Positions 36,857 to 49,519 of a DNA stretch of 64,000 nucleotides are shown here, piece after piece; positions within the stretch are counted from its first letter, which is position 1, and the number at the start of each line of letters is the position of its first letter. The position numbers and the translations under genes were made by a program. Below the pieces are notes generated by a model, which saw only the letters and a list, made by a program, of their open reading frames with translations, was not told the origin of the DNA and did not search any database. The stretch covers positions 895,907 through 959,906 of the forward strand of contig OY970230.1 of NCBI GenBank assembly GCA_963714095.1. The letters are read 5' to 3'. The DNA comes from Candidatus Gottesmanbacteria bacterium. Its GTDB lineage: Bacteria > Patescibacteriota > Microgenomatia > UBA10105 > UBA927.

Positions 36857-38444
<1,588 letters not shown>

Positions 38445-38645
38445 ATTTTAAAATCAATGTCGCCAAAAAAGTAAATTCGCAAGAAGACTGCTTTTGATGC
38501 GCTGTTGATATAGCGTCGCTGAGAGCGACGCAAAATTAAAATCGCTTTTACAGATCCCCGCGATGTAGTGTATACATCAACATGGGTAGCGATGCTCTCA
38601 ACATCTTTCTTACCACCATTTGATTGTCAAGGAGTAATAGCCGAA

Positions 38646-38666
38646 GTCCCCGCAAGGGGATTTTTT
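38646..38666 (+). terminator. Rho-independent terminator downstream of the 16S rRNA.
   Basis: GTCCCCGCAAGGGGA hairpin followed by TTTTTT. Confidence 0.6.
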
Positions 38667-38733
38667 GCGGACGTTTGACTGTCTTCATTCCAGAGATGAT
38701 AATCAATATTTGAAGTTATGAATATTTCAAAAA

Positions 38734-40190
38734 TTGCTTCTTTTCTTGCAACCCTCTCAAAAATATAAGCTGCTTCTTTTAGGCATTGTGCTGTTTCTGT
38801 TTATTGTTCACGTTCCGGAGCTTGCGGCCCCAATGAGAAGCGAATCAGATGCATATGATCGGTCACTGACTGCCCAGTGGATGAGAGATAGTCATGTTAT
38901 ATTCGATTTGCATCCCTTTTCCTGGCTGCCTTTACATTCTACTATTTTGACTACCTCTTTATATTTATATAACAACATTTACTTTACTCCTCGATTCATA
39001 ACCGTCATTTTTAGTCTGTTAACAGTAGTTCTAATGATTCCGTATAGTCAGCTTTTTTTAAAAACAAAAAGGAGGGGATTTATTTTTTTATATGTATGAT
39101 TTTTGCATTACTTCCTATAAATTTTTATTTAGCCACCGTAACGTTAAGTGAGCCGATTTTTTGCTTTTTTCTGATAAGCTCATTGGTTCTTTTGAGTCCG
39201 GAGAGAACTTTTAGATACTACCTTCTGGGTATATTCATGTTTACCATAGCAACAGGTATTCGTTATGAGTCCTGGTTTCTATTACCTTTTATTTGGTGTC
39301 TCATTTTGATAAAAGATTTGCCGGTTTTTAAAAAAATTGTGCTTATTTTGGGGAGTGGTTTATTTATAAATTTTTGGATCTTTTTAAATTCGTTTTACCT
39401 TCATGACCCCTTTTTCTTTTTTTAAAATGTATATAATTCGGGGATAGCCGGTGCAAACCCCGCGTATTTTCGTCTACTGCCATCTTTACAGGGCTGGTAT
39501 GTCAGATTGACAGATATATTTCCAAGTTTGTTACTCTGTTTAGTCGTTATAGGTTTATTCGCGGCATTATATAGGAATCAAAAAAAATATCTCCTCATTC
39601 TTGTTCTCCTTCCTTTTTACCTTTTTTTGATATTAGTATTGCAGGTTTATTTTGGCACATTGCCGTCTGATCTATGCCGGTATCTTGTGACGCCTATTAC
39701 ACTAGTCTTTCCTCTGGTCGGAGTTGGTATATACACGCTTTTTCTATTTTTAAGGCGATTGGATGTGCCTGCCCTGCTTATTAAAATCGGTTTTGCCGTA
39801 TTTTTTTGTTTTCTCTATATTCCGCTTTTTCCGCATACTCAAAAAGTTCTCCAACTGGTTGAAAATTATACCAAATCAACAAATGGAGGATTTATTATCA
39901 GTAAGTGCATTCCTCTCGAAATTTCCCATTTCCGCTTCGGATTCAAAGGAATTTTATATTTTTATCCTTCAGAAAAATCACGTCAATATTTGGATTCCGG
40001 ATTACGGTATTTTTTTCATCCGTCTGACAAAAAATTGTATTCTCAGCCTATTTCACAACTTCGAAGACCGCCTAAATTAAACCCAATTATTGTTTATGAA
40101 AGACCATATAGTTCGAGGGGTGTTCCTTCAGAAACCCGATATTCTCATTATGGAATTCTCTATGAGAATAGCTCCTTTATTGTTTTTTGA
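38734..40190 (+). pseudogene. Disrupted GT-C-type (ArnT/PMT-like) membrane glycosyltransferase gene, split into three ORFs by one frameshift and one in-frame stop.
   Basis: Three consecutive hydrophobic ORFs (121, 109 and 227 aa) sum to about the size of the adjacent intact GT-C gene. AT-rich. Confidence 0.4.
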
Positions 40191-40215
40191 CGTGAAGCTA
40201 GGAATGAGGCTTGTT

Positions 40216-41682
40216 TCATGGAACAGGTAGCGAGTATAGTTTTATACATTCGTGCGGATTCGCTGACTTATCAGCACAGAGAGTTTCAAGGAGTTCTGGT
40301 CGTTGAGCACTTATACATGGGTACTGATCCGGAGTTGTAATATACAGGATAGATTTTGGAATAGTAGATATCGGAATAGCAGATTGTTGGTCTTCGAGTA
40401 CGAATCTCAATTTTGTTGCTTTCAGGCAATCGCAGTCGGACCAAAAAATTTTTGATTTTATTGTAGTATAACCATAAAAAGGGTTTTCAATTTGATCCTG
40501 TACAAACGATTGTGATGTCAAAACTGCATCAGGATATTCATGTTGAATATGGGCAATGACTTGTTGAGTAAAATATATTGAGCGGAAAAACCCGAAAGAT
40601 ATTTCGTTATCATATACGAACGGCGTATAAAAAGTGTTTACTATATTCGAAAAGATAAATCCTACGCAAATTATTGTCACAGCGCATAAGAGAATAGTCC
40701 GATTGGTTATAAAACAAGTAAAGATAGCAGAGAAGAGAATGAAAACGACAGGATAAACTTCCAAGAAATATCGCGGTTGTACAGGGCCAGTCAGCGGAAA
40801 GACGTAGTATCCGATACTTACGAGGACAAGGAAGAACATCACCGGTAATTTTGAACGATAAATAGTACGTTTTGATACGGAAAGAATAACCAGTCCGATG
40901 ACAACGATTCCGATGATAAACCATTCCTGATTTTTGAAGAGACTTTGTTCAAAGTCCCAATGTAAATCTCTTGGATTCAGGCCGGATAGTATATGGTTTA
41001 TATTGAATAACGAAACGTTGTATGGCCAAAGGAACCACCCAAATAGCACCTTGTTGACGCACATCCATGCAAAAAATATACAAATCGGAAACAACAGGAA
41101 AAGGCGCGGTTTCCGTTTAGTGGTACAGAGGTCAAATAATAAAATTGCGACCAGCAGAATAATTCCCGGTTCCTGGGTTAAAACGAGTAGTGATGCGGAT
41201 AGTGTATATGCCCATGGTTTCTTTGCGAAGTAATAATAGAGAGTCATAAGAAACACTGCGGTAAATGGTACAGCGTCGACGAAGAGGAAACTTTGTGTTG
41301 CAAAAAGAGGATACGTAAGAAGCAGCAGGAGCGCGGCAATACCAACTTTTGTTGAAAAAAGCTGTTTTCCGAGAAGATATACATAGAACAGTGCAATTGA
41401 AGAAAATATATATATCTCTATCCGTCCCCAGGCAAGGGATGGACCTATCAGTTTGAATAATAGCGCGGGCAATATATACATTAATTGCGGCTTGTATCCG
41501 TAAAAATAGACAAACGGATTTACATTATTGTGAGATATGATATCGACGCCGGTAAAGTACAGGATTTCATCTTCAAAGGCGGGTATTTTCGCAAACGGAA
41601 TGCGGACAATTATGTTTGTGATACAAAGCAATAAAACAATTATTGTAAATTTATCGTGAGATATTTTTTTCCAAAGATTCAT
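40216..41682 (-). CDS. GT-C-type membrane glycosyltransferase (ArnT/PMT family-like).
   Basis: About 11 TM helices with an N-terminal DE-containing loop, as in GT39/GT83. 488 aa. Confidence 0.5.
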   Translation of the reverse strand: MNLWKKISHDKFTIIVLLLCITNIIVRIPFAKIPAFEDEILYFTGVDIISHNNVNPFVYFYGYKPQLMYILPALLFKLIGPSLAWGRIEIYIFSSIALFYVYLLGKQLFSTKVGIAALLLLLTYPLFATQSFLFVDAVPFTAVFLMTLYYYFAKKPWAYTLSASLLVLTQEPGIILLVAILLFDLCTTKRKPRLFLLFPICIFFAWMCVNKVLFGWFLWPYNVSLFNINHILSGLNPRDLHWDFEQSLFKNQEWFIIGIVVIGLVILSVSKRTIYRSKLPVMFFLVLVSIGYYVFPLTGPVQPRYFLEVYPVVFILFSAIFTCFITNRTILLCAVTIICVGFIFSNIVNTFYTPFVYDNEISFGFFRSIYFTQQVIAHIQHEYPDAVLTSQSFVQDQIENPFYGYTTIKSKIFWSDCDCLKATKLRFVLEDQQSAIPISTIPKSILYITTPDQYPCISAQRPELLETLCADKSANPHECIKLYSLPVP

Positions 41683-41799
41683 ATAGTGTTTTCACTACGC
41701 ATTTTTATCCTCATAACAAAATTATCATACACTAAGTGAATATGATAAAATAGCATCGTAGAGAATGTTGTTTCGGGTTCATTGAATAAGTAAATAGTC

Positions 41800-41872
41800 C
41801 GGCGCGGTGGCGAAGTGGTAACGCGGGAGTCTGCAAAACTTCTATTGCAAGGGTTCGATTCCCTTCCGCGCC
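41800..41872 (+). tRNA. tRNA-Cys (anticodon GCA).
   Basis: Acceptor GGCGCGG/CCGCGCC, anticodon loop CUGCAAA, T-loop GGTTCGATTCC. Confidence 0.85.
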
Positions 41873-42096: not shown

Positions 42097-42168
42097 GGGC
42101 GGCTAGTTCATCGGTAGAACGCTTTCCTGATAAGAAAGAGGTGCATGGTCCGACTCCATGGCCGCCCA
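42097..42168 (+). tRNA. tRNA-Ile (anticodon GAU). Its 3' portion forms the attachment site of an integrated element.
   Basis: Acceptor GGGCGGC/GCCGCCC, anticodon loop CUGAUAA. Unusual T-loop UCCGACU. Confidence 0.8.
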
Positions 42169-42171
42169 CAA
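42105..42171 (+). repeat. attL: the 3' part of tRNA-Ile (direct repeat copy 1).
   Basis: Identical 67-mer to 49453-49519. Confidence 0.8.
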
Positions 42172-42274: not shown

Positions 42275-43282
42275 ATGCAGAGAGAAGTACTAGAAAAATA
42301 CATTGCGGAATGGTTAGAAGACTATTCAAAGGAAGCCGGTTTATCTCATCAGACCGTATTAAATAAGACTTCTAGCATGAAGCGGTTTCTGTTGTTTGTT
42401 GGGGATAGAAAGGTCACAGTTCCCATTATCCGTGAGTATCTTTCCTGGTTGCGTGAGCGGCTGATGCTTTCCTCGGTGCGATGTGAGATAAAGAATCTGA
42501 GAGCCCTGTCATGCTTTTTGGTAAAAAGAAGGTACATAAAGCAGGAAGACGATTGGTCCGATCAAATCAGTATGCCAAAATACATAAAACAACCACTGCA
42601 AGTACCTGACCAAATAACAATGGAACGAATCATTATTGAGGGGACAACCCCGCAAAAGGGTGAAAATAATCGTTGTCAAAAGGCGAAAAGTGAAACGAAA
42701 GACGCACTCATGTTTTGTTTACGCCATGGTTTGCGCTCCGAGGAGCTGCGAAGTTTGGAGACGTCACAGGTATCACTTGATAGCGATACGCCAACCTTTT
42801 CGTTTAAGAGGAAAGGCGGCAAAGTGATGACGCTACCTATTACAAAAGATATGGTTCCGATGCTTAAAGAGCGTTGTAGTGCTCCTAGACGGCTTATTTT
42901 TACGGTTTCGGAGAAGACACTGAACACCGCACTGCAACGGGGAGCCGAGAGGTTGCATATAACCGAACCGGTCCACTGCCATACGCTCCGGCACTGTTTC
43001 GCCACGGAATTATTGAGGAAAGGTGTACCGATTGAGCAAGTAAGCGCTATGCTTGGTCATAGCAACATTCAACTGACGTATTCCTATTACCAGCACTTGC
43101 TTCCAAATGATTTTTCACTCCACATGGCAAAGCAGACCATAGTGAGGGAGCGCATGCCAACTGCGACTATTTTTGAGACCGTTATAAAAGCTGTAGAATC
43201 AACAGGGGTTACAAAAGATGCCCGATTTCAACATTTAATTAAACAAGAGGGGAAAACTTTGGTTATTCAGATTTCTGTGTGA
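42275..43282 (+). CDS. int: Tyrosine-type site-specific recombinase/integrase.
   Basis: Conserved catalytic boxes. An Arg in LRHGLRSEELRSL, HxxR in HTLRHCFATELL, and a catalytic Tyr in LGHSNIQLTYSYY. Confidence 0.85.
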   Translation: MQREVLEKYIAEWLEDYSKEAGLSHQTVLNKTSSMKRFLLFVGDRKVTVPIIREYLSWLRERLMLSSVRCEIKNLRALSCFLVKRRYIKQEDDWSDQISMPKYIKQPLQVPDQITMERIIIEGTTPQKGENNRCQKAKSETKDALMFCLRHGLRSEELRSLETSQVSLDSDTPTFSFKRKGGKVMTLPITKDMVPMLKERCSAPRRLIFTVSEKTLNTALQRGAERLHITEPVHCHTLRHCFATELLRKGVPIEQVSAMLGHSNIQLTYSYYQHLLPNDFSLHMAKQTIVRERMPTATIFETVIKAVESTGVTKDARFQHLIKQEGKTLVIQISV

Positions 43283-43332: not shown

Positions 43333-43671
43333 CTATTTTTCTAAAATTTTTTTAATAATTGCCTCTATCCCTTTTGTAATATTATTTGATATGACACAGA
43401 GATGTCCAAATAAACCCATTGCAAAAATAATAAATAATCCAAAATCACTAATATCTAAAAGTTTACCCTTTAATAACAACGGCCACCTAACGCGTATAAA
43501 GTAATACCCGACTAATCCGGCAAATAGGAAGTTTACAATATCGTTCCAGAATTCAACAAAGTTAAGTTGCCAAGACCAGCCTTTACGACTGGGAGCAATG
43601 CTAGCAAATTTTATATAGCCCAAAATAATACTCGCTAAAAATACTAAACTTAAAATAACAAAATTATTCAT
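43333..43671 (-). CDS. Small 3-TM membrane protein (island cargo).
   Basis: Hydrophobic ORF. 8-nt overlap with the upstream gene. Confidence 0.4.
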   Translation of the reverse strand: MNNFVILSLVFLASIILGYIKFASIAPSRKGWSWQLNFVEFWNDIVNFLFAGLVGYYFIRVRWPLLLKGKLLDISDFGLFIIFAMGLFGHLCVISNNITKGIEAIIKKILEK

Positions 43672-44245
43672 AAGTTTGATGATGGGAATGTTGTAAACTT
43701 TTGAAGTAGTTGTTTAGCGATGATTGCCGAACTTCTTGATTATTTGTATTACTATTTGATCCTCGTGTTGTAAATAGTAAACGGCACCCAATGATGACTA
43801 AGAGTATGAGAGCGATACAAAAACTGATTTCTTGTATATACAGGGGTACAGTAGTAGATGAACCGGGAACTGGGCCAAGCGCTTCAACTTCGCGATTTGC
43901 TTTATTAAATTGTTTACTAGAATCAGACCATATAGATTCTCTTTTACTTGAATCTCTGGATATTTTTACGAAATAATCGCTATCAAATAGTAGCTGAATT
44001 AAACCACTTAATATAGAAAAAAGAAATAATAGCCAGCTCGCCAAAAGTAATATTTTATCTGATTGACTTAATTGAATATTTAATACGATGACAGAGGCAG
44101 ATAATGGTAAAATTACTGACGATAGGGCGAGAAGTTGCCGAATGATTTCTGATTGTCGTTGGTTAGCAAGTTCAATCCAAAATAATGCTGCTCGTTGTGC
44201 TGCATCTTTGTTCCTTTGTCTCAAAGTTTCATCATCTTGCGCCAT
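43664..44245 (-). CDS. 4-TM membrane protein with a charged N-terminal helix (island cargo).
   Basis: Hydrophobic ORF, translationally coupled to 43333..43671. Confidence 0.4.
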   Translation of the reverse strand: MAQDDETLRQRNKDAAQRAALFWIELANQRQSEIIRQLLALSSVILPLSASVIVLNIQLSQSDKILLLASWLLFLFSILSGLIQLLFDSDYFVKISRDSSKRESIWSDSSKQFNKANREVEALGPVPGSSTTVPLYIQEISFCIALILLVIIGCRLLFTTRGSNSNTNNQEVRQSSLNNYFKSLQHSHHQTYE

Positions 44246-44480
44246 TATTTTTTACCTTTATTAGTTGGCAGTAAGGGTTTTATTGAGTGACTTTCATTTG
44301 TTTTATCTTGTGTTATCGGTGCTGAATAACCTTTTTTGTCCTGTATAGTAGGCGCTGTGAATCCTTTTTTGAAGTCTGACAGTTGTGTTATTGTTTTGTT
44401 CATATAGTAGCTTTGCATAAGAGTCTAGCATTTTATATATATTCAAGCAACCATATAGAGTAACGAGTATAATTTGGCGT

Positions 44481-45851
44481 ATGACAAATTGTTATTATAA
44501 AAACGTAATAGACTATTTTGGATCTTCTTGGTTTGATTCTGCTTGGAAAGAATTTCGGGAAATAAGAAATAAGTTTTCAAATGATTCGTTTAGTAGTGAA
44601 ATCACTAAACTTGAATTAAGTTTACACCCGTTACATAGAGACATATTTACATGGCAAGATTTATCTAAAGGTTATTTAGATTTTGATAAAATACCCCAGA
44701 AAAGTGCATCGGATTTTAATTTATCTCATCTCGGACGTGATTTGGAATTATTGTCAGAAGAGATAAAACAACGGGGTTCACATATAAAACATGATCTTTT
44801 AGATCCAGTTGCCTACGAAAATCATAGATTTACTTTATTAGTTGCGGCGGGGTATAAAAAACTTGGTTTTACGGTTGAATTTGTTCCAGCGTCATCGTCA
44901 AAAGGGAAAACGCCGGATTTACTTGTTAATGATACTTATTTCATTGAGTGTAAGCAAAGAAACCAACAAAGTTCGGACGATTCAAGATATAGATTTTTTG
45001 GTGAGCTAGTTGAGACATATTTTGGAATATTACGAGTAAAAGGCATAAATAATTATTTTTTAAATATAGAGGATAATGGCTCTGTAGAATCGCATAAAAA
45101 TATTATTGATACGATCATAAGAAGAAAGATTTTTAGGAATCAAACTATACCCAACACAAAAAATACAAGAGTGTCTCTTACAAGAGCGACTGATTTTCCT
45201 GATTTAATAAAAATATTGAAAGAATTCGGTCATTTTCTAAAAGCCCCAGTTTTTACGAGAACAGAAGATGCTTTTATAGCTTCGGATCCGAAACTAATGA
45301 ATCTATTTATGCTTAATAAAAATATTAACGTCGCCGAGCTCTCAAAAAGTGTTTTTAGCCTGCTAACTGATGCTGACAGTAAAGACAAAAAGAATAAAAA
45401 GCTAATTGTATATATTGACTTGGGTAGGGCTCCAAGCGAATGGATAGCTAATCTGGCAGATTATCTTTATAAAGGGGTGGGAGTTCATGCTTATAAAAAT
45501 ATAGATGCATTTGTAGTTTGCAGGACGCCCATTCTTTATACTGAATCACGGACTGAAATAAGGCCAAACTTTAATATAATCGGTCATACTTCACGTCTTG
45601 GGGATACACCGGATAAATTGAATCTTTTTGGATTTCAAGGACATACAGGAATGGATGGATATTTTATTGACGGATTTTTGAACCCCATTATCACGACTAC
45701 GAGTGGTAGCAAGTATATAGAGTGTCATAACTGTGGCTTTAGACTTGAAGGCATTGCGACGAATTTAGGCAACGGCGAACAATTATCTGAGGCCAATATG
45801 CCATGCCCAAAATGTTCTCATGCAATGGATATGACAATAAAAGAAACGTAA
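44481..45851 (+). CDS. Hypothetical 456-aa protein with a PD-(D/E)xK nuclease-like motif and a C-terminal C4 zinc ribbon (island cargo).
   Basis: …ENHRFTLLVAAGYKKLGFTVEFVP…TPDLLVNDTYFIECKQ (E…PD…ExK spacing). C-terminal CHNCG…CPKCSH. Confidence 0.5.
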   Translation: MTNCYYKNVIDYFGSSWFDSAWKEFREIRNKFSNDSFSSEITKLELSLHPLHRDIFTWQDLSKGYLDFDKIPQKSASDFNLSHLGRDLELLSEEIKQRGSHIKHDLLDPVAYENHRFTLLVAAGYKKLGFTVEFVPASSSKGKTPDLLVNDTYFIECKQRNQQSSDDSRYRFFGELVETYFGILRVKGINNYFLNIEDNGSVESHKNIIDTIIRRKIFRNQTIPNTKNTRVSLTRATDFPDLIKILKEFGHFLKAPVFTRTEDAFIASDPKLMNLFMLNKNINVAELSKSVFSLLTDADSKDKKNKKLIVYIDLGRAPSEWIANLADYLYKGVGVHAYKNIDAFVVCRTPILYTESRTEIRPNFNIIGHTSRLGDTPDKLNLFGFQGHTGMDGYFIDGFLNPIITTTSGSKYIECHNCGFRLEGIATNLGNGEQLSEANMPCPKCSHAMDMTIKET

Positions 45852-46034: not shown

Positions 46035-46874
46035 ATGATCTACAAGGTTCGTTCTGCTACTCGGAAAGAATTGGATACGGCGATTGGTTGGGCGGCAAAG
46101 GAAGGGTGGAATCCAGGGTTATACGACGCTGATGCGTTCTTCGCAACGGACCCTAAAGGGTACTTCATGGGATTTCTCGGAAACACTCCGATTGCTTCGC
46201 TTTCCGCGGTATCCTACGGACCCGATTTTGGTTTTCTCGGGTTCTATATCGTCAAACCGGAATATCGGGGCAAGGGATACGGCTGGAAACTTTGGCAGAC
46301 GGCCCTCAAACACCTGAAAACGCAGAATATCGGTCTTGATGGTGTCGTAGCGCAACAAGAAAATTACAAAAGATCAGGGTTTACTCGTGCATACGCAAAT
46401 ATCCGCCATGAGGGAACGGGTGGAAATACCTCGCCGAAGTCAATCTGCATAGTCCCTTTGGCAAGGGTACCGTTTAATATTCTTCTCGCCTATGACCGAC
46501 AGATGTTCCCGGCCAAGCGAGCGGCATTTCTCAAACTTTGGATTAACCAGCCGAAAAGTCTAGCGCTCGGGTATATGAAAAACGGGAAACTACTTGGATA
46601 CGGCATGGTGCGACCCTGTAAGGTGGGTTACAAAGTAGGCCCGCTGTTTGCGGACAATGAAAATATTGCTGATGAACTTTTTCAGCAGTTCCGCGCATTC
46701 ACAGGAAAAGAAAAAATCTATCTGGACGTGCCGGAGGTAAACAAGAACGCGCTTGCTCTTGCCAAAAAGTATTCTATGAAGCCGATGTTTGAAACTGCCC
46801 GCATGTACACGAAGGCAATCCCTAAGGTAGCGCTCAATAAAATCTTTGGTGTTACGACGTTTGAGGTGGGATAA
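46035..46874 (+). CDS. GNAT-family N-acetyltransferase (two-lobed, 279 aa).
   Basis: Acetyl-CoA binding motif FYIVKPEYRGKGYGWKLWQ. Confidence 0.7.
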   Translation: MIYKVRSATRKELDTAIGWAAKEGWNPGLYDADAFFATDPKGYFMGFLGNTPIASLSAVSYGPDFGFLGFYIVKPEYRGKGYGWKLWQTALKHLKTQNIGLDGVVAQQENYKRSGFTRAYANIRHEGTGGNTSPKSICIVPLARVPFNILLAYDRQMFPAKRAAFLKLWINQPKSLALGYMKNGKLLGYGMVRPCKVGYKVGPLFADNENIADELFQQFRAFTGKEKIYLDVPEVNKNALALAKKYSMKPMFETARMYTKAIPKVALNKIFGVTTFEVG

Positions 46875-47241: not shown

Positions 47242-47766
47242 CTAAATACACCTAAGACCAGAACGCGATCGGTCAGTCGCGACGTAGTTTATTCTCCATT
47301 GCGCCCCTCGTATATCAAAGCTGCTTGTAGACGAATCTCCATTGCTTCCAGAGATTGTAAAAACGGTATGCCATGCAGCTGGAGCCGTCGGTGATTGGGC
47401 GGTTGGGTATATTTTTTTAGTTGGAAAATATTGAAAATAATCAATGGTCGGAGTTGCATGTTTCTGTTGTAAAAATTCTTCTACGGTCATTGATTTTATT
47501 GGCTCCGTTTGGGGAGTGGCTATTCTCCCAACATAAATTAACACTGAAAAAATAAGAACCAGATAAAAAATGGACAATGATGCCTTTATGGAACTATCAG
47601 CTTTCACTCGTTTATCCCACAACCAGTAGTTGGGAAGTGTGTAGACGAAGATAATGAATAATAAAATGAGTGCTGCGTGAAAATTCCCAGTATATCCAAT
47701 AACAAGTAATGGTATGGCACATAACACTATGGCTAAACTGATGATGATTTTTTGTATTTTTGTCAT
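47242..47766 (-). CDS. Membrane protein (2-3 TM) with a Ser/Thr-rich extracellular tail (island cargo).
   Basis: Hydrophobic ORF. Confidence 0.4.
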   Translation of the reverse strand: MTKIQKIIISLAIVLCAIPLLVIGYTGNFHAALILLFIIFVYTLPNYWLWDKRVKADSSIKASLSIFYLVLIFSVLIYVGRIATPQTEPIKSMTVEEFLQQKHATPTIDYFQYFPTKKIYPTAQSPTAPAAWHTVFTISGSNGDSSTSSFDIRGAQWRINYVATDRSRSGLRCI

Positions 47767-48062
47767 AGCTTAAATACAGAAAATATGAAAGACAGAATGG
47801 TAAGAAATATATAAATACCACCAATAAAAATAGCGAAGAATACTGCCGTACTAATAATAATTCTCACAATTGCTAAAAGTAATTCAGTTGTCCAATGTTT
47901 TGAGGGAATCTTTTTTAATAAAGTAGTAACTTTTTGCCATATAAAAGACCACAGTCTCTTGAATTGTTTAAATAACATGTAGCTAAATATGTTCGGCATA
48001 CAAAAAACTCCCGTCAGCGGTAGGTTTCCCCACCTGCAAGAGTTTCCCCTTACAGCCGACAA
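47763..48062 (-). CDS. Small 2-TM membrane protein, translationally coupled to 47242..47766.
   Basis: 4-nt overlap (ATGA). Confidence 0.35.
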   Translation of the reverse strand: MSAVRGNSCRWGNLPLTGVFCMPNIFSYMLFKQFKRLWSFIWQKVTTLLKKIPSKHWTTELLLAIVRIIISTAVFFAIFIGGIYIFLTILSFIFSVFKL

Positions 48063-48194
48063 AGGCGCTCTGACGAGAGTTATCTGCCTTTGTCGGTCTT
48101 CTTTGCCATGCCCGGCATATTTGCCGGGTTTAGGCTATTAAATTGTAGGTCCATTTTATACCTGACAACACAGGTGTGCAAACGCAAAAAATGC

Positions 48195-48436: not shown

Positions 48437-48631
48437 GTGGAAAGACATATGACAGATACAAATTCAACATCAAAATCAATCAAACCTCTTTATACGGCTC
48501 AGAAGTGTCCTGTATGTAACGGATGGGGTACGGTTTCCTATCAACGAGTAACTTGCCATGCGTGTAACGGGAAAGGATACCTACTCATTCCTGTAATGAA
48601 AGACAGAAAGACAGAATATGATGGAACATAA
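48437..48631 (+). CDS. Small zinc-finger protein (CxxCxGxG x2, DnaJ-type zinc-finger-like).
   Basis: CPVCNGWG…CHACNGKG. Confidence 0.45.
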   Translation: MERHMTDTNSTSKSIKPLYTAQKCPVCNGWGTVSYQRVTCHACNGKGYLLIPVMKDRKTEYDGT

Positions 48632-49370
48632 AATAAACTTCAGCATCTTACGTCAGGCGGTACGAGATCCTACGCTAAAACCTATTGATAAAGTAGTTCT
48701 CATGGATTTGCTCTTATATGCTGGGACAACAGATAGGGCATTTCCAAGCGAAGCTACGCTTGCTAAAAATCAAGGAGTCACAGATAGGTACATTAGAGAT
48801 GTTATCGTTCATCTTAAGGACTCTGGATGGATCAGCTGGAAAAAAAATGGATATTCAGTAAGCAATAGGTATAACTTTAATCAAACTCTTTATCCTTGTT
48901 CCGACGGCGCTCACAGGAACTCTGTTTCCTATGATTCCGGAACTCAGACTCCGTTACATTCCGGAATTGCAGTTCCGCCTATACATAGTCAGGAAAGTAA
49001 TCAACATAAAGGTAGTCAAGCACAACAACTTTTTGAAGAAACTTTTAAGACGAAATGCACTCCCACGGAGGCTACCCGCTTACAGGGTCTTACTAGCTCG
49101 TATACGGAAGAATGGGTTGCCGCGGCCATTAAGGAAGCCCTTGGGAAGCATAAGCCATTCGTAACAGTCGGCCTCATTGAGCTTATCTTGTCAGATTGGA
49201 AGCGTGATGGTAAACCGGAGGAAAAACCAAAATTGGTAGCCTGCGGGTTAAATGGATGCAAACATGGCTATATATTTACGGGTAGCAGTTATGTTGAATG
49301 TAATTGCTTATTAGAATATAAAATTAGAGTGCAGAAATGGGAAAAGAGTGATAGGCGAGTGCAGTTTTGA
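48618..49370 (+). CDS. Winged-helix/HTH protein, putative replication-initiation or regulatory protein of the element.
   Basis: N-terminal DKVVLMDLLLYAGTT…ATLAKNQGVTDRYIRDVIVHLKDSGWI is HTH-like. C-terminal Cys cluster. Confidence 0.45.
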   Translation: MMEHKINFSILRQAVRDPTLKPIDKVVLMDLLLYAGTTDRAFPSEATLAKNQGVTDRYIRDVIVHLKDSGWISWKKNGYSVSNRYNFNQTLYPCSDGAHRNSVSYDSGTQTPLHSGIAVPPIHSQESNQHKGSQAQQLFEETFKTKCTPTEATRLQGLTSSYTEEWVAAAIKEALGKHKPFVTVGLIELILSDWKRDGKPEEKPKLVACGLNGCKHGYIFTGSSYVECNCLLEYKIRVQKWEKSDRRVQF

Positions 49371-49452: not shown

Positions 49453-49519
49453 AGTTCATCGGTAGAACGCTTTCCTGATAAGAAAGAGGTGCATGGTCCG
49501 ACTCCATGGCCGCCCACAA
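49453..49519 (+). repeat. attR: a partial tRNA-Ile 3' copy (direct repeat copy 2) lacking the 5' acceptor strand.
   Basis: Identical to 42105-42171. Preceded by unrelated sequence. Confidence 0.8.

Follow-up and report, generated by a model that had tools for sequence, protein, structure and literature searches.

What is the function of the 456-aa protein encoded on a genomic island of a Candidatus Gottesmanbacteria bacterium, and does it belong to a recognised class of enzyme? The open reading frame lies on the forward strand at 44481..45851 (stop codon counted) of the 64,000-nucleotide stretch of DNA analysed here, hereafter the window, and begins with ATG. It codes for a PD-(D/E)xK nuclease-like, three-domain protein with a predicted zinc ribbon at its C-terminus. 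The start position is shared by the homologues in an alignment of 16 close relatives, the opposite strand of 44481-45851 holds no competing reading frame of at least 60 aa, and a sequence search found an identical copy of the protein already on record. Scans for promoters and terminators around the gene gave nothing exceeding shuffled expectation, and no inverted or direct repeats were found flanking it.

The island in tRNA-Ile

The gene had been placed on an integrative element, and this location is borne out by an integrase gene and by a perfect 67-nt direct repeat of tRNA-Ile, which bounds a 7.3-kb island inserted in that tRNA. The repeat is the 3' part of the tRNA gene: its attL copy (42105-42171) lies within tRNA-Ile(GAT) (42097..42171, + strand), and the 100% identical attR copy, located by repeat search and as a partial tRNA match, forms a partial tRNA-Ile at 49453..49519 on the same strand. 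GC content is 0.34, against 0.47 in the host flanks, which indicates a foreign origin.

The island codes for a tyrosine integrase (42275..43282, +; Phage_integrase, 1e-24; phrog_1 integrase, 1.9e-35), four membrane ORFs, a GNAT (46035-46874), a zinc-finger ORF and a DnaD-like replication-initiation protein (48618..49370, +; HTH_36 and DnaB_2; phrog_186, 1e-11). The membrane ORFs are small, hydrophobic and divergent, and flank the 456-aa gene as two pairs. These pairs and the GNAT had been read as typical company for a defence or toxin module; they are present as described, but they are not conserved neighbours at other loci and thus say nothing about function. ORF and domain searches found no DNA methyltransferase among the island genes, and within the window no known defence system lies beside the 456-aa gene.

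Domain architecture and predicted fold

The protein comprises an N-terminal all-helical domain (aa 1-107; 44481..44801, +), delimited by model secondary structure and conservation, a PD-(D/E)xK nuclease core (aa 108-200; 44802..45080, +), a C-terminal α/β domain (aa 201-400; 45081..45680, +) and the zinc ribbon (aa 411-456; 45711..45848, +). All of the motif strings quoted in the original prediction occur in the translation: ENHRF (residues 113-117), TLLVAAGY (118-125), TPDLLVNDTYFIECKQ (144-159), CHNCG (415-419) and CPKCSH (442-447). Within TPDLLVNDTYFIECKQ lie P145-D146 (44913..44918, +), the 'PD' of the catalytic motif, and E156-C157-K158 (44946..44954, +), its '(D/E)xK'. The roughly 290 residues said to follow the motif come to about 298 beyond K158.

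By itself this motif is no evidence, as 15.5% of shuffles of the window protein contain the pattern PD.{4,20}[DE].K, and 11.5% have it with an E ahead of it. What lifts it above chance is the conservation of the triad, together with its placement in the predicted fold. E156 is kept in 172/172 aligned members of the superfamily, K158 in 170/171 and D146 in 161/172 (and in 21 of the 24 close relatives). The picture is alike at every depth of alignment (16, 24, 69 and about 172 relatives): E156 and K158 invariant, D146 almost invariant. The structure model is confident (pLDDT 82.9, pTM 0.81) and contains a canonical αβββαβ core, the α-β-β-β-α-β topology of the restriction-endonuclease fold. D146 sits just before β2 (147-149), at its N-terminus, and E156 and K158 fall within β3 (153-159), as expected of a family-conserved PD-(D/E)xK active site. 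The order of motif residues originally proposed, and the canonical scaffold on which they were expected to lie, are both upheld by this model and the alignments. A glutamate assigned to the preceding helix fared less well: E113 is present but only semi-conserved, being Asn in two relatives (P0014 and P0015). The α1 Glu conserved throughout the superfamily aligns instead with T118 of the window protein, whose clade has Thr at this position.

Comparisons with known structures and profiles are less telling. The suggested Foldseek search of the model against the PDB returned no significant nuclease match, and its top match for the whole model, likewise not significant, is a non-catalytic domain. 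Searches of PDB sequences with the window protein and two family profiles gave no real match; similarities to an avirulence protein, CT021 and ferritin were judged spurious. The window protein matched nothing in Pfam, Mrr_cat (PF04471) included, at E <= 0.1. Among 69 relatives, four match the Mrr_cat profile (best E 0.0023, below the gathering score), and distant relatives show weak matches to Mrr_cat, Hjc, AHJR-like and the ZorD Mrr-like nuclease that fall exactly on the nuclease core. An hhalign comparison with EcoKMrr places FE over FE, D146 over the Asp of 'GTGD' and ECK over QAK; the register is correct, but the score falls short of significance (P = 0.046, probability about 1%).

The predicted fold class is one that the window protein has in common with the Mrr/Mrr_cat type IV enzymes and the Mrr-like domain of ZorD. 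The likeness extends to the order of motifs (F-E in a helix, followed by an Asp in a β-strand and by (E/Q)-x-K) and to a stand-alone gene, free of a methyltransferase, in which the nuclease is fused to extra recognition domains. The differences are nonetheless considerable: the nuclease is central rather than C-terminal, the N-terminal domain is all-helical where that of Mrr is a winged helix, a 200-residue C-terminal α/β domain is added, and the catalytic motif is ExK as opposed to QxK. With the correct register offset by a non-significant hhalign score, and with neither the window protein nor its close family matching Mrr_cat significantly, membership of Mrr was rejected. Hjc and AHJR-like proteins (PF01870, PF18743), matched by two relatives below curated cut-offs, share the minimal E…D…ExK restriction-fold core. 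Hjc, however, is a single-domain housekeeping enzyme of about 140 aa, whereas the present family consists of three-domain accessory proteins of 400-500 aa on mobile elements.

Both flanking domains are conserved in their own right. In the helical domain G14, W17, H49-P50 and L84-G85 (LGRD) are kept across the superfamily. In the C-terminal α/β domain the close family keeps D263, D297-A298, Y311, D313 and P362 invariant; across the superfamily, conservation is limited to A298 and a Gln at position 301 (Lys in the window protein). This domain ends in a glycine-rich motif, FGFQGHTGMDGY (aa 383-394; 45627..45662, +), which is near-invariant in the close family, forms the C-terminus of members without a ribbon and falls where the model is least confident. 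A GHKL ATPase would have a Bergerat fold on which an N-box, G1 (DxGxG) and G2 (GxxGxG) follow one another in the canonical order and at the canonical spacing; here the motif order and spacing are wrong and superfamily conservation is absent, and this assignment was rejected. Because the αβββαβ topology recurs in this domain, where D263 and K280 take up equivalent positions, this half was also considered as a degenerate second nuclease domain. Profile-profile alignment of the two halves was negative and the idea was rejected, leaving a topological hint only.

The zinc ribbon is real but does not define the architecture, as had been supposed. Its two Cys knuckles (C415/C418, 45723-45734; C442/C445, 45804-45815; both +) form a CxxC…CxxC arrangement that arises in only 0.03% of shuffles of the window protein and is therefore non-random. 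Three β-strands are predicted (411-414, 421-423 and 448-455), giving the small sheet of a ribbon. Both knuckles are conserved where the module occurs: it is found in 7 of the 24 full-length close relatives, and the tails of all seven carry two CxxC pairs. On these sequence features, the predicted ribbon is an accessory module and not a family-defining one.

An uncatalogued family and its gene neighbourhoods

An exhaustive search (E <= 1e-3) gathered a superfamily of 211 clusters at 50% identity with a common three-part architecture. A second, word-indexed search with a wide alignment added almost no further relatives, and pattern scans of genomes and metagenomes recovered only three loci. Members occur in CPR bacteria, Enterobacterales, Aeromonas, Rhizobiaceae and P2-like and Mu-like prophages, as well as on about 65 plasmids, 54 of them conjugative; they include proteins of E. 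coli phage 899 (XSF65193.1), Aeromonas (WP_059296297.1), Serratia (WP_308332602.1) and Klebsiella plasmids. Some similarities and labels were set aside. Matches by tblastn to Enterococcus plasmids are chance similarities to the C-terminal end of an ORF resembling a muramidase. The label 'transposase' on Rhizobium and Agrobacterium relatives finds no transposase family in Pfam or NCBIfam to support it, and the terminal inverted repeats expected of a transposase are missing around the window gene. One homologous locus (L015) has an in-frame TAG at a Trp codon, which we attribute to mutation or sequencing error and not to recoding.

The architecture had been thought to match no described family, and the catalogues agree: neither the window protein nor its relatives have a family assignment in Pfam, NCBIfam, PHROGs, PADLOC or PDB sequences. 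PADLOC-DB 2.0.0 gave no match for the window protein or for ten plasmid and phage relatives, and among the 69 relatives a single model, that of the ZorD nuclease domain, matched the nuclease region. PDC-S12 and E2 matches in two relatives span a 20-residue N-terminal stub only and were discarded as uninformative; other weak PADLOC matches, for example to PD-T7-5, HEC-02B and TPR models, were seen at unmapped positions. The window protein and these ten relatives thus differ from the single-gene or effector nucleases of defence systems (HamA of Hachiman, NucC, Cap4, Can2 and Shedu-type) in matching no PADLOC model. There is, moreover, no conserved signalling partner such as a cyclase or helicase, and no SAVED or CARF domain was recognised.

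Gene neighbourhoods were tallied over a sample of about 18 loci, without a statistical background model. As predicted from the window alone, homologues lie in mobile and defence surroundings, near recombinases, type I restriction-modification (R-M), IetAS, Gabija, dnd and prophage insertion sites, and not consistently among housekeeping genes. Type I R-M adjoins the gene at two loci (L001, L006) and Gabija at two others (L023, L025); IetA (an ATPase) and IetS (an S8 protease) lie directly upstream, on the same strand and in the same order, in L014 and in the Agrobacterium locus L022 (pDG3-1g). Elsewhere there are dndBCDE with a DGQHR protein (L019), a nearby DNA methyltransferase (L024), and an upstream GHKL-type ATPase (HATPase_c_3) with a faint HEPN-family match (L011). 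Serine-recombinase islands at tRNAs carry the gene in L001, L004 and L010. In a Mu-like prophage, which also has ApeA-HEPN, it is a solitary insert among tail genes, and in a P2-like phage it sits between the tail-fibre-assembly and sheath genes, an insertion site described as a hot-spot for defence and accessory genes (PMC13586616). Two contexts look ordinary, one adjoining glycolysis genes (L009) and the other an aminoglycoside-nucleotidyltransferase-like gene (L007); at both, the gene is directly downstream of tRNA-Gly. Across 11 loci no conserved partner gene or antitoxin was found, the only recurrent neighbour being a large serine recombinase (3/11). Lacking a conserved neighbour, the gene makes up a self-contained cassette by itself.

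Proposed function and its rivals

We lean towards the view that the protein is a stand-alone endonuclease of PD-(D/E)xK fold, with the triad as its active site, that acts in defence or in conflict between mobile elements; we infer that it is an active nuclease, that its substrate is DNA, that it serves defence, and what its flanking domains do. The product would be a cytoplasmic, metal-dependent endonuclease with D146, E156 and K158 as putative active-site residues. The helical and α/β domains, with the zinc ribbon in the subclade that has one, would most likely be there to recognise the target or to control activity. Its most likely role would be to cleave incoming foreign DNA, from a phage or a rival mobile element, whether by type IV-like or otherwise methyltransferase-independent restriction or as an infection-triggered suicide nuclease, the gene being carried here as cargo of the integrase/replication-protein element. 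CRISPR is largely absent from CPR bacteria, which depend on restriction-type defences that often lie on islands (PMC12455944). Classical type II restriction-modification was rejected, with no cognate methyltransferase in the island and none conserved across loci. Single-chain type II/IIS and nicking enzymes (BsmI, N.BspD6I, PaqCI, HindIII, SgrAI) show no sequence similarity to the window protein, in which a test for internal duplication gave no sign of a second nuclease domain.

A nuclease toxin, stabilising its element by post-segregational killing and restrained either by a labile antitoxin or by the toxin's C-terminal domain, would also suit a gene on integrative elements and plasmids. Toxin-antitoxin (TA) genes lie near several relatives (MazE with SNase in L001; HipA in L025 and L027; PIN in L021 and L023), and IetAS itself was originally reported as a plasmid-stabilising TA system (PMC13069673). 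We consider such an addiction module unlikely, however: no small neighbour is conserved across loci and there is thus no antitoxin candidate, and the genes flanking it in the window are divergent membrane ORFs absent elsewhere.

The solo gene, found at many unrelated insertion sites with no conserved partner, between conserved phage tail genes or directly 3' of tRNA-Gly, might instead be a free-standing selfish endonuclease of homing type that spreads by cutting cognate empty sites. This seems improbable for a protein of 400-500 aa with three conserved domains, which is large for a homing endonuclease, and there is neither an intron or intein context nor a flanking repeat. The phage sites, moreover, are known accessory and defence hot-spots and not homing targets (PMC13586616), and repeated adjacency to defence systems would be unexpected. 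The loss of the α1 Glu in the clade of the window protein, and the non-catalytic domain at the top of the Foldseek list, could point to an RNA-targeting enzyme (a tRNase as in some CdiA-CT toxins) or to a catalytically dead DNA-binding scaffold or sensor. We hold this to be improbable too, as the strict retention of the triad over very long distances argues that catalysis is retained, and the bridging matches are to DNA nucleases (Mrr, Hjc, the ZorD nuclease). Finally, a resolvase that acts on Holliday junctions or replication intermediates when the island replicates or excises, which the sub-threshold Hjc and AHJR-like matches, the integrase and DnaD-like initiator and the frequently adjacent recombinases might suggest, is very improbable, given that most such elements lack the gene, that it occurs with no recombinase or replication gene nearby in L006, L011, L014, L019 and L022, that it resides in phage accessory hot-spots and not replication modules, and that it is truncated with no apparent harm in widespread IncA-type plasmids.

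Within the preferred reading of a defence or conflict endonuclease, we tentatively suggest a broader one: a widespread superfamily, so far in no catalogue, of single-gene nucleases directed against phages or plasmids. Its helical and α/β domains would make up a novel apparatus for sensing or gating, and in some lineages it may supply a third, nuclease component of IetAS, possibly under protease control. Adjacency of protease and nuclease genes, as in L014 and L022, is likewise a feature of the protease-gated pro-nucleases of Hachiman, AVAST and canu (PMC12799240) and of IetAS variants with extra modules (PMC13069673). Those pro-nucleases, however, are of the metallo-β-lactamase type with trypsin-like or caspase proteases, in contrast to the PD-(D/E)xK protein and subtilase of L014 and L022, and the window locus has no protease, so that the link is one of analogy only. 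The recurrent IetA-IetS-nuclease order nevertheless provides a testable lead into the mechanism of IetAS.

The widespread, unnamed family described here is a good candidate for a new single-gene defence nuclease. If it is one, it fills a gap in Pfam, NCBIfam, PHROGs and PADLOC. The gene is found on conjugative plasmids of clinical relevance, in P2-like prophage hot-spots and on genomic islands of CPR bacteria, whose immunity is poorly understood. The organism of the window is uncultured, but the hypothesis can be tested directly on relatives, namely those in E. coli phage 899, Serratia, Aeromonas and Klebsiella plasmids. Should the role not be defence, the family would still represent a well-conserved three-domain restriction-fold protein with a C-terminal fold of no assigned type.

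Predicted fold and active site of the window protein

The target gene proved to be a plus-strand open reading frame of 456 codons beginning with ATG (44481-45851), as originally predicted, and no overlapping ORF of 60 aa or more lies on the opposite strand. The strings that had been read as a PD-(D/E)xK nuclease core and a C-terminal zinc ribbon are all present in the window protein: ENHRF at residues 113-117, TLLVAAGY at 118-125, TPDLLVNDTYFIECKQ at 144-159 (containing P145, D146, E156, C157 and K158), CHNCG at 415-419 and CPKCSH at 442-447. The nuclease pattern PD.{4,20}[DE].K arises in 15.5% of shuffled versions of the protein, a frequency that makes the bare pattern weak evidence in need of independent support.

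An AlphaFold2 model built from a 16-sequence alignment is confident (mean pLDDT 82.9, pTM 0.81). Residues 1-107 are all-helical in this model, while residues 108-200 are arranged as α(112-127)-β(132-134)-β(147-149)-β(153-159)-α(162-187)-β(192-198), with D146 directly ahead of β2 and E156-x-K158 within β3. The predicted fold thus places PD…ECK on the αβββαβ scaffold in the canonical PD-(D/E)xK arrangement, the result by which the nuclease idea had originally been set to be judged. A Foldseek search of the PDB with the model gave no significant match. At the sequence level, Mrr_cat was matched by four relatives (best E 0.0023), and Hjc and an AHJR-like domain by one each; the Mrr-like nuclease region of ZorD also aligns to the core of the relative P0140 (2.6e-5). 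Profile comparison with E. coli EcoKMrr (P = 0.046, probability about 1%) paired FE with FE, D146 with the Asp of 'GTGD', and E-C-K with Q-A-K. These bridging matches to the nuclease core are weak but consistent. Overall, the assignment of the PD-(D/E)xK fold and its active site is very probably right; we place the protein in neither Mrr nor any other named family.

Conservation and domain architecture

The suggestion that the protein belongs to no described family was borne out, with searches of Pfam, PADLOC, PHROGs, NCBIfam and PDB sequences all returning no match. A word-indexed search recovered 16 proteins (the identical sequence and 15 close homologues). The identical sequence comes from a 1.09-Mb contig, and the nearest relative, 60% identical, is encoded in a Candidatus Roizmanbacteria genome, which makes a CPR/Patescibacteria host likely. 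An exhaustive profile search of 1.84 billion representatives yielded 211 clusters at E <= 1e-3 and 20 at E <= 1e-30; most matches are 400-500 aa long, and every existing source name among them is 'hypothetical protein'.

Among 24 full-length close relatives, (near-)invariant residues occur in the N-terminal region (H49-P50, L84-G85-R86-D87), the core (R116-F117, A122, K126, D146, E156, K158, Q162, D166), the C-terminal domain (D263, D297-A298, Y311, D313, P362) and the terminal motif G384-x-x-G387-x-x-G390-x-D392-x-Y394. Iterating within the collected set extended the alignment of distant relatives over the whole span from N-terminal helices to C-terminal domain, which makes the three-part architecture a superfamily trait. 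Conservation at this wider level lies mostly in the nuclease core (F117, Glu at 118, A122, Y125, G129, K143-T144-P145-D146 and E156-C157-K158). Of the originally proposed nuclease motif, E156 and K158 are kept in 172/172 and 170/171 aligned members respectively, whereas the helix glutamate, E113, is only semi-conserved; position 118 is Thr in the clade of the window protein versus Glu in the superfamily.

The zinc ribbon also stood only in part. Its CxxC…CxxC pair is real, arising in only 0.03% of shuffles, but is found in just 7 of the 24 full-length close relatives; relatives on long contigs (e.g. P0013, 487 kb) lack it too, which marks it as an accessory module of one subclade. SEC-C metal-binding motifs occur in two distant relatives and TPR repeats in two. 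A metagenomic copy (L015, 2171-3487) has an in-frame stop where relatives have Trp (FRWQG); the codon is TAG, which rules out TGA recoding and leaves a nonsense mutation or sequencing error.

The C-terminal half drew scattered GHKL ATPases (sacsin SR1, GyrB, Topo VI-B, MutL and HtpG). Membership of this group, with a Bergerat fold, was rejected: the look-alike motifs DAN, DxGRG and GFQGHTG are in the wrong order and spacing, and are not kept across the superfamily. In the model this half repeats the αβββαβ order, with invariant D263 and K280 at matching positions. Such a repeat hints at a second, degenerate domain of nuclease-like type, but aligning the profiles of the two halves with each other gave a negative result. 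In the C-terminal domain, conservation across the superfamily is confined to A298 and to a Gln that aligns with residue 301, a Lys in the window protein. Since polar conservation at the superfamily level is lacking there, a role in recognition or regulation would be favoured over catalysis.

Genomic settings of the gene and its relatives

The gene lies on an integrative element with membrane-gene pairs and a GNAT as neighbours, as had been claimed. A 67-nt direct repeat comprising the 3' part of tRNA-Ile(GAT) (tRNA 42097-42169, repeat 42105-42171) recurs as a perfect copy at 49453-49519, recognised by Rfam as a partial tRNA, and the two repeats delimit a 7.3-kb island. This contains a tyrosine integrase (42275-43282; Phage_integrase 1e-24), two small minus-strand hydrophobic ORFs ahead of the target gene, a two-domain GNAT (46035-46874), a second minus-strand hydrophobic pair (47763-48062 and 47242-47766) and a DnaD-like replication initiator (48618-49370). 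Base composition varies across the island in mosaic fashion: GC is 0.30-0.35 across the target gene and the two upstream membrane ORFs (43333-45851), versus 0.44 for the integrase and 0.48 for the GNAT, both near the flanking chromosome (0.47). This suggests a separate acquisition of the nuclease block.

The island also carries a minus-strand LOOT RNA (48019-48136; Rfam RF03000, 87.9 bits against a gathering score of 46.4), directly 5' of the second hydrophobic pair on the same strand and overlapping its annotated start. Its role could be that of a cis-regulatory leader or of a small RNA carried by the element; the LOOT source paper gives no description of it in its main text. A 64-aa ORF (48437-48631, plus strand) has two CxxCxGxG knuckles, CPVCNGWG and CHACNGKG, runs 14 nt into the start of the DnaD-like gene, and gives only weak PHROG matches to Q-like antiterminator zinc fingers. 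Outside the island, the window holds a bacterial 16S rRNA gene (36857-38442) and a tRNA-Cys, with no 23S rRNA in its 64 kb. Some 3.4 kb of low-GC DNA (0.34-0.39; 38443-41800) separates the 16S gene from tRNA-Cys/tRNA-Ile and contains three consecutive fragmentary hydrophobic ORFs resembling a broken membrane-protein gene (38734-40190, plus) and an intact PMT_2-like glycosyltransferase (40216-41682, minus).

When all ORFs lying up to 3.5 kb from the gene at 11 loci were compared with one another, no conserved partner emerged, and the only shared neighbour was a large serine recombinase (3/11). The mobile unit is therefore a cassette of this single gene. Within the close family, the gene lies in Roizmanbacteria (L001) downstream of a type I R-M-like operon and adjoins SNase+MazE, a transposase and a serine recombinase at tRNA-His. 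Elsewhere it follows HsdM, HsdS and HsdR (L006), sits in serine-recombinase islands (L004, L010) or immediately downstream of tRNA-Gly (L007, L009), or follows a GHKL-type ATPase (HATPase_c_3) and a protein whose HEPN-family match is only faint (L011). On one MAG contig (L014, 11-5361), IetA (3.4e-78), IetS (3e-49), a 181-aa ORF and the gene share a strand, with gaps of 1-101 nt.

Among the distant relatives, those borne by phages are non-structural genes amid tail genes. One is a stand-alone insert in a Mu-like prophage of Nitratidesulfovibrio (L016, 10001-11299), which also has ApeA-HEPN; another, in P2-like Escherichia phage 899 (PV533660.1; L026, 4752-6137), separates the tail-fibre-assembly gene from the tail-sheath gene. 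The Z/fun site of P2 lies between genes G and FI. A defence/accessory hot-spot has been described in P2 at Z/fun and 'within the tail genes' (PMC13586616), and the phage 899 insert position matches it.

Distant relatives also occur on approximately 65 plasmids, 54 of them typed conjugative. On a Rhizobium leguminosarum plasmid (NZ_CP007048.1; L019, 1-8293) the gene follows a DGQHR dnd-associated protein (TIGR04172, 9e-140), divergent from dndBCDE, the place at which one would expect a restriction component linked to phosphorothioation. On Agrobacterium plasmid pDG3-1g (L022, 3551-8293) it follows IetA and IetS on the same strand with short gaps. Other copies lie beside Gabija (Agrobacterium, Aeromonas), divergent from a 972-aa DNA methyltransferase (Xanthomonas) or by a tyrosine recombinase (Serratia). 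The 'transposase' label on Rhizobiaceae copies, including that in L019, has no domain support, and no inverted repeats were found flanking the window gene. Ten plasmid and phage relatives compared with PADLOC models gave no match. On an IncA-type E. coli plasmid (NZ_CP107721.1; L027, 5001-5627), the one copy inspected, only residues ~29-229 remain, the rest being replaced by a TnAs1 transposase, resolvase and class 1 integron; many further enterobacterial plasmids show the same partial match, likewise unannotated. At the corresponding place in the backbone of Aeromonas pAhD4-1 the gene is intact, with HipA upstream of it and Gabija downstream.

Proposed role of the predicted nuclease

The best-supported reading among those weighed is that the protein would act as a stand-alone PD-(D/E)xK endonuclease, an accessory weapon carried by mobile elements and directed against phages or competing elements. 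In full, including a defence or conflict role, we consider this statement only somewhat more probable than its negation. Four less probable alternatives fit the observed contexts less well: an addiction toxin, a selfish nuclease of the homing type, an element-maintenance resolvase, and an RNA-targeting or inactive protein.

An accessory endonuclease might spare its host in several ways. Cleavage could depend on DNA modification, as in type IV enzymes, which fits because there is no methyltransferase, or be blocked by host modification, which would fit the dnd-linked Rhizobium copy. Alternatively, the enzyme may stay inactive until triggered, gated by its flanking domains or its conserved glycine-rich C-terminal tail. 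More speculatively, L014 and L022 may represent a three-gene form of IetAS: both have the IetA-IetS-nuclease order, and their nucleases share only about 15-20% identity. As precedents, IetAS has acquired additional essential modules (PMC13069673) and pro-nucleases gated by proteases are known (PMC12799240), the latter with a fold different from that of this family. At the window locus, where no protease is encoded, the idea does not apply.

Restriction-fold nucleases are commonplace on defence islands, so the general kind is already known and the family is no categorical surprise. What is new is its architecture, its full absence from current family and defence catalogues, and the breadth of its distribution. 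As a candidate for a defence gene, the window gene is solid and can be tested, with tractable relatives in enterobacteria.
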